DNA from: Candidatus Magasanikiibacteriota bacterium
GTDB lineage: Bacteria; Patescibacteriota; Patescibacteriia; Magasanikbacterales; UBA922
NCBI GenBank assembly: GCA_021648085.1
Contig: JAKITS010000001.1
Span: 324,948 to 388,947 of the forward strand
Reading direction: 5' to 3'
DNA: 64,000 nucleotides
The notes below the pieces were generated by a model, which saw only the letters and a program-made list of their open reading frames with translations, had not been told where the DNA came from and made no database searches. Each line of letters opens with the position of its first letter. The stretch's first letter is position 1. Made by a program: the position numbers and the translations under genes. Shown piece after piece: positions 5,505-61,024 of the stretch.

Positions 5505-6572
5505 TTATCTAATTCTTCTTTTTTTATCATCTCTTGCAGAAGGAAGGGCCACTTCTTTTAAAAGTTTGTCATCCTCCAAAAGTACGCCAATTCCCCTAAC
5601 CACAGCAGTAAGTGGGTCGTCTACAATTCTCACAGATATGTTTGTGGCACGGGAGATAACTTTATCCAAACCACGCAAAAGAGATCCACCACCTGAAAGC
5701 ATAATTCCTCTTTCATGTATATCTCCTGTCAATTCCGGCGGTGTCGTTTCCAAAGTTATTTTTATCTGTTCTATTATTCCACTTATAGATCTCTCTAAAG
5801 CTTCTCGTACATGTTCATCGTTTATCATTATTTCTTTTGGAAGGCCTGTCATCACATCTCGCCCTCTCATCGGAAACTCAATAGACTCTTCCAGATTAGA
5901 GGCAGATCCCACTTTTATTTTAATATGTTCAGAATGACTTTCTCCAACAAAAAGATTAAAAACTTCTCTTGCATACTGTGTGATATTTCTATTCATCTCA
6001 TCGCCTGCGATTTGTGTAGATTTCCAACTTACAATTCCACTAAGCGATATTATTGCAACATCCGTAGTTCCACCACCAATATCAACTATCATATTTCCTA
6101 TAGGCTCTTGAATAAGCATACGCGAACCAATTGCTGCTGCCATTGGTTCTTGCACCACAAAAACTTCTTTTGCACCAGAAGAGATTACAGCGTCTTCCAC
6201 GGCTTTCATTTCTACCTCTGTCGCCTCAAGTGGAATGCAAACTATAACTCTTGGCCTAGCCATTATAAAAAAACCATTCTCGTAAACTTTATCTATAAAA
6301 TAGCGTATCATCTTTTCCGCAACTTCATAATCTGAAATAATTCCATTTGAAAGTGGTTTTGTCACCACAATATGCGAAGGAGTTTTACCAAGCATTCTTT
6401 TTGCTTCGTCTCCTACTGCCAAGATTTGTTCCGTCCTTGTATTTATTGCAACTACAGAAGGTTCGTTTATTACAATTCCTTTGTCTTTTATATAAACCAA
6501 AGTATTGGCAGTTCCCAAATCTATGCCGATATCTCGTGGTTTAAATTTTCCAAAAAAAGACTTTAAAGACAC
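5505..6572 (-). CDS. mreB: actin-like rod shape-determining protein MreB
   Basis: IGIDLGTANTLVY phosphate-1 motif and DIGGGTTD phosphate-2 motif. 355 aa. Confidence 0.92.
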   Translation of the reverse strand: MSLKSFFGKFKPRDIGIDLGTANTLVYIKDKGIVINEPSVVAINTRTEQILAVGDEAKRMLGKTPSHIVVTKPLSNGIISDYEVAEKMIRYFIDKVYENGFFIMARPRVIVCIPLEATEVEMKAVEDAVISSGAKEVFVVQEPMAAAIGSRMLIQEPIGNMIVDIGGGTTDVAIISLSGIVSWKSTQIAGDEMNRNITQYAREVFNLFVGESHSEHIKIKVGSASNLEESIEFPMRGRDVMTGLPKEIMINDEHVREALERSISGIIEQIKITLETTPPELTGDIHERGIMLSGGGSLLRGLDKVISRATNISVRIVDDPLTAVVRGIGVLLEDDKLLKEVALPSARDDKKRRIR

Positions 6573-27569: not shown

Positions 27570-27669
27570 AATTTATTTTAATTAATCTTTTAATCTTATA
27601 ATATCACAATTAACAAAATTGAGTAAATAAAAAGTAACACATATTAGGTTACTTTTTCGCTCGACGGGT

Positions 27670-28119
27670 CGGATTCGAACCGACGACCAATTGGTTACAC
27701 TCTACCCTCTGTTCCCAGAAGAAGTGGACTATATTATCACCCTCGCCTAAACCGCGTAAATCGCGGACGTTAGGGTGCGAAGCGCTTCCCAACAAATTGC
27801 AAACAATCTGTAAGTACTCCCGTAAAGGGATAGTCTCTGAACCTTCCGAATATAAGTCCTTATTACACAGACTATGCAAAACACATAAAGTGTACATATT
27901 CCTTTTTGTAATCTTTGGACTATACAAGGCTTGGCTGCTGATTGCCCTTGATATAGGGAACTGTTATTAAATACCATTTCTATTAAAAGCGTATTTAATG
28001 ACAGTTCCCAATTCATCGATTGGGTTTCCAGCAATTCACTTCGTTATTCACCTTGATGTTTCCACCAAGGGCTGCATTTTATATATACAGCCAACTGCTC
28101 TACCACTGAGCTACCGTCG
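27670..28119 (-). tRNA. tRNA-Asn(GUU), split by an intron in the anticodon loop (5' exon 28086-28119, 3' exon 27670-27707)
   Basis: Minus strand. 5' half TCGACGG-TA-GCTCAGTGGTAGAGC-A-GTTGG-CTGT and 3' half TAA-CCAAT-TGGTC-GTCGGTTCGAATCCGAC-CCGTCGA-G. Acceptor stem and T-arm are perfect. The spliced anticodon loop is CUGUUAA. Confidence 0.75.
27708..28085 (-). other. group I-like self-splicing intron (about 378 nt) inside tRNA-Asn
   Basis: Exon GGCUGU pairs with intron GCAGCC 9 nt into the intron (P1 with a U-G wobble at the splice site). P2 is CCTTGGTG-GAAA-CATCAAGG. CAGAGACTA motif in the P7 region. Intron ends in G (omega-G). The ORFs called inside it are spurious. Confidence 0.65.
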
Positions 28120-28165
28120 AATATTGGAACCTGAAAGATTCCTTTTGTAAAAATTACACCCCATC

Positions 28166-28194: not shown

Positions 28195-28407
28195 GTGTTT
28201 TCAAGGATTAAAAAAAGAGCCTTTGAAAAAGCTCTTTAAATTCTTAATTATGATTACGATTTACATTGTTTACACTTTTTACAAAAATAATATTGAAAAA
28301 TAAATATATTTTTAGTAATAAAAGTATAATTTAAAACTTTTTCTTTCTTTTTTATTTAATTCTAACTTTCAACTTTAAAAACTTTATAGACTTTTCAACT
28401 TCTTCTG

Positions 28408-28503
28408 CCATCCTTAGCTTGACTAAAAATCCAGGGTTTAACTCAACATTCATTTACTAAAGACTCTGGATTCCCGATCAAGTCGGGAATGACATAAAGC
28501 AAA
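28408..28503. repeat. intergenic repeat family R2, copy A (contains ACTCTGGATTCC and hairpin ATTCCCGA-tcaag-TCGGGAAT)
   Basis: Homologous copy at 42945-43052 and partial copies at 55975-56000 and 56070-56102. Confidence 0.6.
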
Positions 28504-28504
28504 T

Positions 28505-28625
28505 ACGTCATATTGAGCGAAGTGAAACGGAGTCGAAATATCTCGAAACCATATCACCAAAACTATGAATATTTAAAGTTCTTATTAAATTATCTCGAGA
28601 TCCCCCTACTGTCGCTCAGGATGGC
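28505..28625. repeat. structured repeat family R1, copy A (about 120 nt, three nested helices)
   Basis: Outer helix CGTCATATTGAGCG/CGCTCAGGATGGCG, middle ATCTCGA/TCGAGAT, inner AGAACT-atgaatatttaa-AGTTCT. Second copy at 41814-41935 with compensatory substitutions. Confidence 0.65.
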
Positions 28626-28670
28626 GTCTATATTTTCTAACTTTCTACTTTTCTAACTTCATTAACTTTT

Positions 28671-39516: not shown

Positions 39517-39589
39517 ATTTTAGTTGTTTAATATAATTTAAATTAGTTCATTTTAGACATAAAATCAAGGAATTCAAAAAGTTAGAACT

Positions 39590-39637
39590 TTCGAATCCAT
39601 GCCGAGAGTGAAGCAGTTCACTCTCTCCTCTCTTCAC
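39590..39637. repeat. partial copy of the tRNA-linked repeat (TTCGAATCCatGCC plus hairpin GAGAGTGAA-gcag-TTCACTCTC plus CTCTCTTCAC)
   Basis: Shares TTCGAATCC-hairpin-CTCTC..TTCAC architecture with the units at 41583-41665 and 60791-61024. Confidence 0.5.
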
Positions 39638-41448: not shown

Positions 41449-41582
41449 CACAGATAAATTTATTGACTTAAATTTTCCGCGACCCCGTCTCACGGTCTTC
41501 ACCTTACCTCTTCGGGTAAACTCAGACATCGCTCCGACTTTCAAATCCCTGTCGAGAGTGAAGCAAGGGCATGTTGATTCCT

Positions 41583-41665
41583 TTCGCTCCGACTCAAGCC
41601 GGGGTGTTGCGTGCTCTCACACCCTTCGAATCCCTGCCGTGACACAAGACTTTGTGTCACTCTCC
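41583..41665. repeat. tRNA-linked structured repeat core (Gln-locus copy)
   Basis: Over 85% identical to the 60791-61024 units. Hairpins GGGTGT/ACACCC and GTGACACAAG/CTTTGTGTCAC carry compensatory changes relative to GGGTGC/GCACCC and CAGGCAAAG/TTTTGCCTG. Confidence 0.6.
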
Positions 41666-41774: not shown

Positions 41775-41813
41775 TATTTATAGAATTAAGAACTTAGATC
41801 TTAATTCTATTCA

Positions 41814-41935
41814 CGTCATATTGAGCAGAACGAAGTGGAGTCGAAATATCTCGATGCAATATTATTAGAACTATGAATATTTAAAGTTCTAGTGTTTTTG
41901 AATCGAGATCCATTCGACTTCGCCCAGGATGACAT
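41814..41935. repeat. structured repeat family R1, copy B
   Basis: Same three-helix architecture as 28505-28625. A 10-bp hairpin TAGAATTAAG-aacttagat-CTTAATTCTA sits at 41780-41808 between it and tRNA-Gln. Confidence 0.65.
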
Positions 41936-51597: not shown

Positions 51598-51624
51598 CAA
51601 AAAAGCACCTAAACTGGGTGCTTT
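51598..51624 (+). terminator. cassette terminator 1 (GCACCTAAACTGGGTGC hairpin)
   Basis: First of three near-identical hairpins (see 52028 and 52436). Confidence 0.7.
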
Positions 51625-51696
51625 TAATTTACAAAAATATAAAAAAATGGTAGTATGAAGTAGGTCTTATTTTTTTACACCCAAAAGGAGGTACAA

Positions 51697-52020
51697 ATGT
51701 CTGAATTTCTAAATTCAATTGTAAATATTAATACCTACTCACTATTGCACTTTTTAGTTATAATTACTTTTATATTTATTATGATTTCAATAATTTGTCA
51801 GGTTTTTTTGAAAAAATATTATTATATACTTGTTATTTCAGTTTGTTCTACACTCTTGTTTTCTGTGATTACTTTTTCCACAGGACTTTATTATATGATA
51901 TTCGACTTATCTTCAGAACTTAGTATTATGATATATGTAAGTTTAGTGCTTATTTTTATAAATATGATCATAAATGCTTTAAATATGAACTGGGTGTTAG
52001 ATAAATATAAAAAGGTATAG
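51697..52020 (+). CDS. small 3-TM membrane protein, cassette 2
   Basis: RBS AAAGGAGG. Own TTTACA/TAGTAT promoter. Followed by terminator copy 2. Confidence 0.5.
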   Translation: MSEFLNSIVNINTYSLLHFLVIITFIFIMISIICQVFLKKYYYILVISVCSTLLFSVITFSTGLYYMIFDLSSELSIMIYVSLVLIFINMIINALNMNWVLDKYKKV

Positions 52021-52027
52021 AAACAGT

Positions 52028-52053
52028 AAAGCACCTAAATTAGGTGCTTTTTT
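52028..52053 (+). terminator. cassette terminator 2 (GCACCTAAATTAGGTGC hairpin)
   Basis: Repeat of the terminator at 51598. Confidence 0.7.
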
Positions 52054-52055
52054 AA

Positions 52056-52083
52056 TTGACAAAATATCTAAAAAATGATAATG
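52056..52083 (+). promoter_or_regulatory. cassette promoter (TTGACA - 15/16 nt - GATAAT), fused to the preceding terminator repeat
   Basis: TTAATTGACA follows the terminator in copies 2 and 3; copy 1 has TTAATTTACA. Confidence 0.55.
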
Positions 52084-52122
52084 TAGTGTTTGAAAATAAA
52101 CCAAAAAAATAGAGGAATACGC

Positions 52123-52446
52123 GTGAATTATCTAGAAATTCTAAAAACACTTATAATGTTTAGTTTATTTTCAATAGCACTGCACATTATATTTTATATG
52201 TTTTTTGCAGGAAATCCCTATTCAACATTTGGTAAATCTAACGCAACTTTGGAAAAAACATCCACATCTAGCACTTTGACAATCACAGGACTTACAAGTT
52301 TAGCCTGGATTTATCTAGCTTTTGTAGAAAAAATAGAGATGAGTACAAAAATTACAGCAATTTGCTTTATTATAATCTGTATTTTTTTTGGAATTTTAAT
52401 ATCCCAATCTAAAACATTTAAAAGTGATAATCCACGAAGCACCTAA
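52123..52446 (+). CDS. small 3-TM membrane protein, cassette 3 (GTG start assumed)
   Basis: The ORF-track start at 52090 lies before the predicted -10 (52077-52082) and TSS. AGAGGAA RBS precedes in-frame GTG at 52123. Confidence 0.45.
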   Translation: MNYLEILKTLIMFSLFSIALHIIFYMFFAGNPYSTFGKSNATLEKTSTSSTLTITGLTSLAWIYLAFVEKIEMSTKITAICFIIICIFFGILISQSKTFKSDNPRST

Positions 52447-52462
52447 TTTAGGTGCTTTTTTA
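52436..52462 (+). terminator. cassette terminator 3 (GCACCTAATTTAGGTGC hairpin)
   Basis: Repeat of the terminator at 51598. Confidence 0.7.
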
Positions 52463-52523
52463 ATTGACAGCTTTGATAAAAAAATATTATGCTAAATAGA
52501 GTTCTTTAACAAAGGAGTTCCCA

Positions 52524-55905: not shown

Positions 55906-56155
55906 TATAATAACTTCGGACTTCGGTTAATTAAAAAAGATGGTCTAATTTTTCTGTCATCATAAGTTTGACTGCGGATCCAGAGTTTATGTCACTATTC
56001 TTTGGATTATTATATAAGTTTATATTTGTATTCTACATATTGCTATATAAAACAGTTTTTACTAGTATTCCCTGGATTCGAGATCTGAATCTGGAATGAC
56101 AGACTTGTTTTTTATTAACTTCTAAATACTAATTATTAATTTAGCACCTTAAACC

Positions 56156-60673: not shown

Positions 60674-60790
60674 ACTATTTTATTTATATTTATTTTATCA
60701 TTTTTATTTTTAAAAAACAAGCTTTATTTTTAAATCAAAATCAAAAAAGTTTTTTGATTTTAAACTATTCTAAAAAAGTGGCAGGACTTT

Positions 60791-61024
60791 TTTCGCTCCG
60801 ACTCAAGCCGGGGTGCTACGCGCTCTCGCACCCTTCGAATCCCGACACAGGCAAAGACTTTTGCCTGCTCTCTCTCCTTCACTTCGTTGCGGAAAGGGCG
60901 GGATTCCTTTCGCTCCGACTCAAGCCGGGGTGCTACGCGCTCTCGCACCCTTCGAATCCCGACACAGGCAAAGACTTTTGCCTGCTCTCTCTCCTTCACT
61001 TCGTTGCGGAAAGGGCGGGATTCG
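60791..61024. repeat. two perfect tandem 117-bp direct repeats downstream of tRNA-Ser, each ending with a copy of the tRNA 3'-terminal ~18 nt
   Basis: TTTCGCTCCG at 60791 and again at 60908. TGCGGAAAGGGCGGGATTC at 60888-60906 and 61005-61023 (the latter is the real tRNA 3' end). Overlapping ORFs on both strands are spurious. Confidence 0.8.

Follow-up and report, generated by a model that had tools for sequence, protein, structure and literature searches.

Does an element of 123 nt that occurs twice in a small bacterial genome represent a structured noncoding RNA, or is it repeat DNA whose palindromic organization makes it fold like one? The question is raised by a 64-kb stretch of DNA from a Candidatus Magasanikiibacteriota bacterium (hereafter, the window), which has a G+C content of 31% and carries nearly all of its genes on the minus strand. 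A preliminary description of this DNA reported two copies of a structured element of about 120 nt, termed R1, and proposed that they could be small noncoding RNAs, tRNA-proximal regulatory or processing elements, or miniature inverted-repeat elements.

The two-copy element is real. Copy A (28505-28627, plus strand; nhmmer E=9e-33) and copy B (41813-41935, plus strand; E=9e-35) align over 123 nt without a gap and are 73% identical, with long invariant blocks. An 18-mer (GGAGTCGAAATATCTCGA) and a 22-mer (AACTATGAATATTTAAAGTTCT) are found in the window only at these two sites, as compared with 0.00-0.01 occurrences expected from shuffled sequences. A profile search with five sequences detected no third copy in the window. 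The genomic context was also described correctly. Each copy lies 3' of a minus-strand gene, with the end of copA 43 nt to the right of copy A and the end of ftsX 41 nt to the right of copy B, and each lies 5' of a tRNA gene, located 385 nt to the left of copy A and, in the case of tRNA-Gln, beginning 40 nt to the left of copy B. The tRNA near copy A is a real one that ARAGORN missed because a group I intron splits the gene. This tRNA-Asn(GUU) (27660-28120, minus strand) is interrupted between anticodon positions 35 and 36 by a 389-nt intron (28086 down to 27698), which matches the Rfam model Intron_gpI with 79.9 bits and is detected only with permissive filters. The spliced exons adopt a normal 73-nt tRNA fold with a U1-A72 pair.

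Other repeats were observed in the window, some of them beside tRNA genes. Two tandem G+C-rich repeats of 117 nt follow tRNA-Ser(GGA) (60780-61013, minus strand), and each ends in a copy of that tRNA's own 3' end, GAATCCCGCCCTTTCCGCA. A related module of roughly 60 nt, GGGATTCGAAGGGTG...GAAAGGAATC, follows tRNA-Gln (41537-41650), with a partial copy at 39587-39615, and the sister species has a short version of the tRNA-Gln module (L010, 10180-10270). These modules have no Rfam match and fold only moderately better than shuffled sequences (z -1.5 to -2.7). They could have arisen by duplication of tRNA 3' ends during past integration events, or they could be a structured element linked to tRNAs. 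A further family, D3, comprises three units of 55 nt at 51603-52491 (plus strand), spaced by 408-426 nt. Each has a hairpin, AAGCACCTAAATTAGGTGCTT, followed by a T-run, a TTGACA-like and A/T-rich sequence, and a terminal ATG, and these units look like repeated terminator-plus-promoter cassettes before tandem small genes.

The nested-helix fold previously assigned to R1 was reproduced. Plus-strand RNA from both copies folds into a three-tier rod, at -30.9 kcal/mol for copy A and -42.9 kcal/mol for copy B (z -3.4 and -6.2, respectively). Copy B retains an extended inner helix, most of which is lost from copy A. The opposite strand folds about equally well, with z scores for copies A and B of -3.0 and -4.7 as RNA, and of -2.0 and -4.6 as DNA; such similar folding of both strands is the behavior expected from a DNA palindrome. 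The statement that the differences between the copies mostly preserve pairing, and so amount to covariation, had to be abandoned. RNAalifold finds that none of the 26 consensus pairs is changed on both sides between the two copies (covariation term, -0.25); copy A has simply lost pairs.

A different organization becomes apparent at the outer ends of each copy, which are two inverted arms that begin with (A)CGTCAT or TGTCAT. Each copy thus consists of two inverted CGTC-tagged units, arranged head-to-head and separated by a 48-nt spacer. In copy A, the left unit (28506-28542, plus strand) has the tag CGTC (28506-28509), a stem formed by ATATT (28510-28514) and AATAT (28537-28541), a 22-nt loop that contains GCGAAGT, and a C at 28542 directly past the palindrome. 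The right unit of this copy (28599-28626, minus strand) has a degenerate tag, CGCC (28626-28623), a stem of ATCC (28622-28619) and GGAT (28603-28600), and a C at 28599. Copy B is the same dimer in a better state of preservation. Its left unit (41814-41850, plus strand) has CGTC at 41814-41817, ATATT (41818-41822) paired with AATAT (41845-41849), and a C at 41850, and its right unit (41907-41934, minus strand; the minus-strand arm reads GTCATCCTGGGCGAAGTCGAATGGATCTC) has TGTC at 41934-41931, ATCC (41930-41927) paired with GGAT (41911-41908), and a C at 41907. The spacer is itself a hairpin. In copy B (41861-41896, plus strand), its stem is formed by TTATTAGAAC and GTTCTAGTG and its loop is TATGAATATTTAAA, and this hairpin is conserved in three relatives described later (L216, L211 and L265); in copy A (28553-28588, plus strand) the loop sequence TATGAATATTTAAA is present and the stem is largely decayed.

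We compared two structural models by using five sequences. In the long-rod model, 89.7% of the cells are paired, as compared with 30-44% in controls in which the sequences were slid, and no pair of the outer helix has changed on both sides. When each arm is instead allowed to pair with itself, 100% of the cells of the 5' arm are paired, and three of the five pairs have changed on both sides (ATATT/AATAT versus ATCCC/GGGAT); only 10-11 of 500 shuffles reach the observed values. The central hairpin has three doubly changed pairs under either model. The G-U and A-G irregularities of the outer helix are explained by two arms that keep different internal stems. The excess of G-U over A-C mismatches on one strand was therefore discarded as a signal of RNA function, because the main wobble column follows from the differing intra-arm stems. 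As DNA, the whole dimers are stable (-15 and -19.6 kcal/mol), whereas single R1 arms are not (-1.4 to -2.0 kcal/mol; z about +1). The instability of lone arms makes their recognition as single hairpins doubtful, and the units may be decaying relics.

The minus-strand arm of copy B resembles a repeat known from spurious ORFs in many genomes. A 25-mer of that repeat, GTCATCCTGAGCGAAGCGAAGGATC, occurs exactly in 24 viral contigs of IMG/VR, where it forms arm-spacer-inverted-arm elements of 54-134 nt and also appears as single arms. A scan in which the stem positions were left free yielded more than 120 loci. The three bases that follow GTCAT can pair with the three that precede ATC in about 140 of 154 arms, and at least ten stem combinations are used (for example, TGC/GCA in 71 arms, TCT/AGA in 26 and CCT/AGG in 25). 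This covarying stem implies that each arm of the family is a hairpin in its own right. The common loop of the family, GAGCGAAGCGA, contains d(GCGAAGC), an exceptionally stable DNA mini-hairpin (Hirao; review PMC13037366). The arm skeleton, GTCATATTGAG-N(6-30)-CGAAATATC, occurs at more than 120 metagenome loci with a median G+C content of 37%, about 30 of which carry the 16-nt insert typical of R1.

R1 is linked to this family by its termini. When a profile of 144 family arms was searched against the window, its three best matches in the 128-kb search space were three of the four R1 termini: the left unit of copy A, the right unit of copy B and the right unit of copy A (E values of 0.058, 1.1 and 1.9), all in the correct orientation, from outward to inward. 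Each match is weak individually; their joint placement on the R1 termini cannot be a matter of chance. The left arm of copy B is identical at 36 of 39 positions to an arm of L216, and at 32 of 39 to an arm that lies beside a gene for a GIY-YIG protein (L163).

Searches with a profile of R1 itself retrieved full-length relatives (L216, 6135-6256, E=2e-23; L211, 1301-1439; and L265, 93-223), as well as longer and shorter variants. A RluB-like pseudouridine synthase encoded at L216 is 83% identical to a protein on a Magasanikbacteria contig whose FtsX is 100% identical to that of the window, and by this protein similarity L216 is a close relative of the organism studied here. Among about 25 low-GC loci with R1-type arms, only L216 could be placed in Magasanikbacteria. 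Copy B shares 79% identity with the L216 element and only 73% with copy A, which indicates that the family is older than these genomes. All R1 relatives are intergenic and are located at unrelated sites. A tRNA is present at only one of 13 such loci, and there it is 2.3 kb away. At L216, complete and half R1-like elements are interspersed with short mini-hairpin units of the form AGCG-NNN-GCGAT in a gene-free region of roughly 700 nt (5640-6380), a mosaic reminiscent of the BIME clusters formed by enterobacterial REPs. GC-rich members of the arm family were also seen in short gaps between terminase, portal and protease genes (L089, 1160-2510; L106, 520-1870), in head modules that are gene-transfer-agent-like or belong to a prophage; these repeats are the source of spurious ORFs with peptides such as VIASEAKQS and LRNDG.

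Exact-match searches were less informative. The 18-mer has nine exact matches in 185,579 species genomes; one of these loci (L009) is unrelated, and the other eight lack the expected downstream motif. The 22-mer has no match in metagenomes, and a two-block R1 pattern has none in viral contigs. A search of the literature with the raw R1 sequence gave only coincidental primers, and keyword searches for repeats of Patescibacteria and for palindromes associated with GIY-YIG proteins found nothing relevant.

The window contains four head-to-head dimers, of which two are R1 and two are built from units with short loops. A canonical CGTC-type unit lies only 10 nt to the left of copy A (28466-28494, minus strand; E=1e-8). 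It reads TGTC-ATTCCCGA-CTTGA-TCGGGAAT-CCAG, with an 8-bp stem, a 5-nt loop and a CCA tail, and it folds as DNA at -7.6 kcal/mol (z -2.9). Its decayed partner in the dimer is TGCCATCCTTAGCTTGACTAAAAATCCAG (28406-28434, plus strand; E=0.0027). The other short-loop dimer (55955-56101; loops of 5-6 nt) is intergenic and partly decayed, and its units, TGTCATCATAAGTTTGACTGCGGATCCAG (55955-55983, plus strand; E=0.029) and TGTCATTCCAGATTCAGATCTCGAATCCAGG (56072-56101, minus strand; E=8.9), are separated by a spacer of about 90 nt. The adjacency seen at copy A recurs at L211, where a unit that fits the published SRM pattern (see below) is situated 10 nt from an R1-like element.

Related genomes differ in the presence or absence of the element. 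In the closest relative, a sister species whose FtsX is 81% identical to that of the window, the order of ftsX and tRNA-Gln is kept, and the spacer between them is 31 nt, as against 203 nt in the window. R1 is absent from the orthologous ftsX-tRNA-Gln spacer in L010, L035 and L036, and is therefore not a conserved part of this locus. The difference between the species is an indel; an insertion is not proven. Conversely, a related dimer of 92 nt is found at L268 in the sense orientation between homologues of atpA and atpG, where the spacer in the window is 9 nt. The flanks of nine copies were checked for direct repeats, and neither a target-site duplication nor another footprint of movement was seen.

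The genes that accompany the family point to a particular enzyme. Neisseria NTS repeats and their relatives, collectively SRM, flank ssnA, which encodes a GIY-YIG protein of 94 amino acids (Chenal et al. 2025, PMC11893778). The hairpin must be single-stranded DNA for SsnA to bind it; the enzyme, which ignores RNA and double-stranded DNA, cleaves a few nucleotides upstream of the hairpin and limits natural transformation (PMC11893778). In a Pfam scan of 103 ORFs adjacent to arms, GIY-YIG was the most frequent family. Four Ssn-like GIY-YIG ORFs of about 100 amino acids lie within dense clusters of arms, each closely preceded by one arm and followed, 5-30 nt past the stop codon, by an inverted arm. 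Three isolate genomes have this same plan of arm, gene and inverted arm, and in Winogradskyella a perfect inverted repeat of 25 nt, GTCATTTCGAGCTTGTCGAGAAATC, encloses the GIY-YIG gene. Two of the four clustered ORFs, on the metagenome contigs L163 and L168, have arms of the R1 type at a distance of 11-30 nt, and these arms are identical to the copy B arm at 32 of 39 and 32 of 40 positions. Contigs of this type look like Flavobacteriia, not members of the Candidate Phyla Radiation (CPR).

In an independent set of distant GIY-YIG homologues (38-51% identity; 36-69% G+C), 14 of 15 loci have tagged hairpins on their flanks, and several of the genes are enclosed by a dimer. At L278, L284, L286 and L287, the sequences beside the GIY-YIG gene fit the published SRM pattern, in one case as the Neisseria NTS itself, and these matches tie our set of loci to that of Chenal et al. 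Recovery of the GIY-YIG association from repeat neighborhoods alone corroborates that study independently. No GIY-YIG gene was detected in the 64-kb window or in roughly 25 low-GC loci with R1-type arms. NCBIfam has no specific model for these proteins, and the PDB offers only UPF0213 entries from structural genomics. Ssn-like proteins of Flavobacteriaceae (L163, L168, L195, L244 and L269-L272) are very often encoded on contigs of 0.5-1.5 kb, a size typical of multi-copy sequence that breaks assemblies, and the arms that flank their genes are missed by the published SRM pattern.

The termini of R1 are homologous to the tagged-hairpin family and the element has the architecture of a dimer, which as a whole is a REPIN-like repeat unit in its behavior. 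We therefore propose, with a probability of roughly 0.75, that R1 is a gene-less, AT-rich, REPIN-like dimer of divergent, long-armed CGTC-tagged, Ssn-related hairpin units that is specific to a lineage of Magasanikbacteria. We are equally confident that it belongs to, or is derived from, the superfamily of CGTC-tagged REPs, that is, the NTS or SRM repeats that flank genes for small GIY-YIG nucleases.

Of the three readings offered in the preliminary description, the miniature inverted-repeat element comes closest to this result, given the inverted units, the conserved termini, the indel and the unrelated sites, and the two RNA readings found no support. A small noncoding RNA gene, or a cis-acting RNA on the plus strand in which the rod with its G-U pairs is functional, would account for the strong folds of both copies, the plus-strand preponderance of G-U over A-C irregularities, a U-rich tract past the 3' end on that strand, and the conservation of the central hairpin, including the loop TGAATATT, among five copies drawn from several contigs, with three pairs changed on both sides. 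However, the other strand folds equally well, the five sequences have no double change in the outer helix, and the G-U column stems from the different internal stems of the two arms. There is no promoter-like site upstream on the plus strand. Rfam, searched with gathering as well as permissive thresholds, matches neither copy, even at E<10, and none of the GC-rich family members. Moreover, the sister species lacks R1 at the corresponding locus, the contexts of R1 elsewhere are unrelated, copies occur in either orientation relative to neighboring genes (as at L268), and the termini show homology to a DNA repeat whose nuclease recognizes it in the form of single-stranded DNA and not of RNA. We consider such an RNA quite improbable. 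The scarcity of tRNAs near the relatives, together with the uncompensated outer helix, also speaks against a tRNA-proximal regulatory or processing element, and RNA-gene and tRNA-linked interpretations are both unlikely. Hammerhead and other ribozymes, retron msr/msd, integron attC, 6S RNA and Y RNA were dropped as candidates because their core motifs or partner genes are missing.

Two other explanations place R1 in DNA or in the transcripts of its neighbors. R1 might mainly be a 3'-UTR hairpin that stabilizes or terminates the minus-strand copA and ftsX transcripts and is kept for that role. Both copies begin 41-43 nt past a stop codon, REPs are located mainly downstream of genes (Di Nocera 2013, PMC3733652), and the minus-strand RNA folds well (z -3.0 and -4.7). 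Also, the only terminator-like site after copA (28237-28214) lies beyond R1, which means that copy A is probably transcribed with copA. Nevertheless, the minus-strand hairpin of copy B is not followed by a U-run, the sister species does without the element in its 31-nt spacer, and relatives are also found upstream of genes, in long repeat arrays, and in an operon in the opposite orientation. This explanation accounts for an effect and leaves aside the origin of R1 and its conserved tagged termini; as the main function it is unlikely, and as a by-product it is possible. A classical MITE, meaning a deletion derivative of an insertion sequence that is moved by a DDE transposase through its terminal inverted repeats, would fit the size of about 120 nt, the ends ACGTCAT...ATGACGT, and the differences in presence and absence among relatives. 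Against it, none of the nine copies compared has a target-site duplication, no parent insertion sequence with these ends was found among the neighboring genes, an earlier search for transposases associated with CGTC repeats found none (PMC3733652), and the tagged-hairpin family already accounts for the termini. We regard a classical MITE as the least credible of these explanations, with very little chance of being correct.

If R1 is a dimer of tagged units, as we propose, its units would fold as hairpins once the DNA is single-stranded. An Ssn-type nuclease, whose gene lies in another part of the genome or was present in the past, might then bind the units and cleave the strand a few nucleotides before the tag, and its action could explain how R1 has spread and persisted. 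That such a nuclease acts on R1 in this genome is a tentative suggestion, to which we assign somewhat less than an even chance. As a secondary effect, read-through from copA and ftsX might carry the rod-like hairpin into their transcripts, where it may stabilize or end them, as proposed for other REPs. A bolder version, in which the composite is a still-active substrate of an unrecognized Magasanikbacteria nuclease of the Ssn type that gates incoming single-stranded DNA and recombination, or alternatively has been taken over as a functional RNA, is improbable on present evidence. Ultra-small CPR bacteria are thought to depend on DNA uptake. If the nuclease-substrate version were true, the control of transformation known from Neisseria NTS and SsnA would extend to the CPR, with a new recognition architecture.

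These findings remove a false lead, in that R1 is best read as repeat DNA and not as a tRNA-linked regulatory RNA, and scans for structure in small AT-rich CPR genomes should expect palindromic repeats of this kind. Our reading would also widen the system of tagged hairpins and GIY-YIG nucleases to a CPR lineage and to new arm shapes. Because the published pattern misses some arm shapes, the published motif counts are probably underestimates. In addition, the link to GIY-YIG proteins supports an answer to the question, posed in 2013, of why CGTC repeats have no transposase.

How closely R1 conforms to known systems can be judged feature by feature. CGTC-tagged REPs, which include Neisseria dRS3 and Rickettsia RPE-4 and RPE-6, have a tag, a stem that starts with AT, a loop of 4-5 nt, a CCA tail and an arrangement in head-to-head dimers; an association with a transposase was sought and none was found, leaving these repeats without a dedicated one (Di Nocera, De Gregorio & Rocco 2013, PMC3733652). 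R1 shares the unpaired 5' tag, as CGTC in both left units and, within the accepted variants TGTC and CCTC, as TGTC in the right unit of copy B, with the degenerate CGCC in that of copy A. It also shares the A-T/T-A start of the stem (ATATT/AATAT and ATCC/GGAT across the four arms, with 100% of the cells paired in five sequences), and it has the multi-copy, head-to-head dimers able to form a larger hairpin. As with these REPs, the copies are intergenic, often just downstream of genes, and clustered with other units. R1 differs in that its arms have stems of 4-5 bp (5 bp and A/T only in the left units) and loops of 14-22 nt in place of stems of 8-9 bp and loops of 4-5 nt, and in that they end in C-TCGA, a CTC tail, whereas canonical units of the window end in CCAG. 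The neighboring unit at 28466-28494 conforms in full to the CGTC-2 format. R1 further differs in its long, conserved spacer that is itself a hairpin, and in its CPR host, which is outside the five phyla listed previously (PMC3733652).

With the NTS/SRM-SsnA system, R1 shares an HGTC tag followed by AT, a hairpin, and a conserved, oriented 5' flank, together with a C right after the palindrome in all four arms (28542, 28599, 41850 and 41907), which is the base that SsnA requires and that is most important for its binding (PMC11893778). R1 departs from this system as a gene-less dimer with no ssn gene, of the cd10448 GIY-YIG type, in the window, and the degenerate SRM pattern, HGTCWYN(0-2)YYVSBRHN(0-5)WNVSBRGN(0-2)RNCYNB, has no match on either strand of the window. 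NTS/SRM repeats form a motif-gene-inverted-motif arrangement around single-domain GIY-YIG genes of about 100 amino acids, and arms of the R1 type occupy exactly that position in L163 and L168. The d(GCGAAGC) mini-hairpin (PMC13037366) has near-copies in the R1 arms, GCGAAGT and ACGAAGT, although the motif is mutated and its position shifts by 5 nt from one copy to the other. Finally, REPINs and their RAYT enzymes (Bertels & Rainey 2011, PMC3116915) differ in having a GTAG tag and not CGTC, and an HUH/Y1 transposase in place of a GIY-YIG protein, and repeats of the CGTC class are not known to move. In both systems, two inverted REP-like units and their spacer are copied as one and reach many copies, a single associated enzyme gene is flanked by the same units, and the repeats reside in a lineage over the long term.
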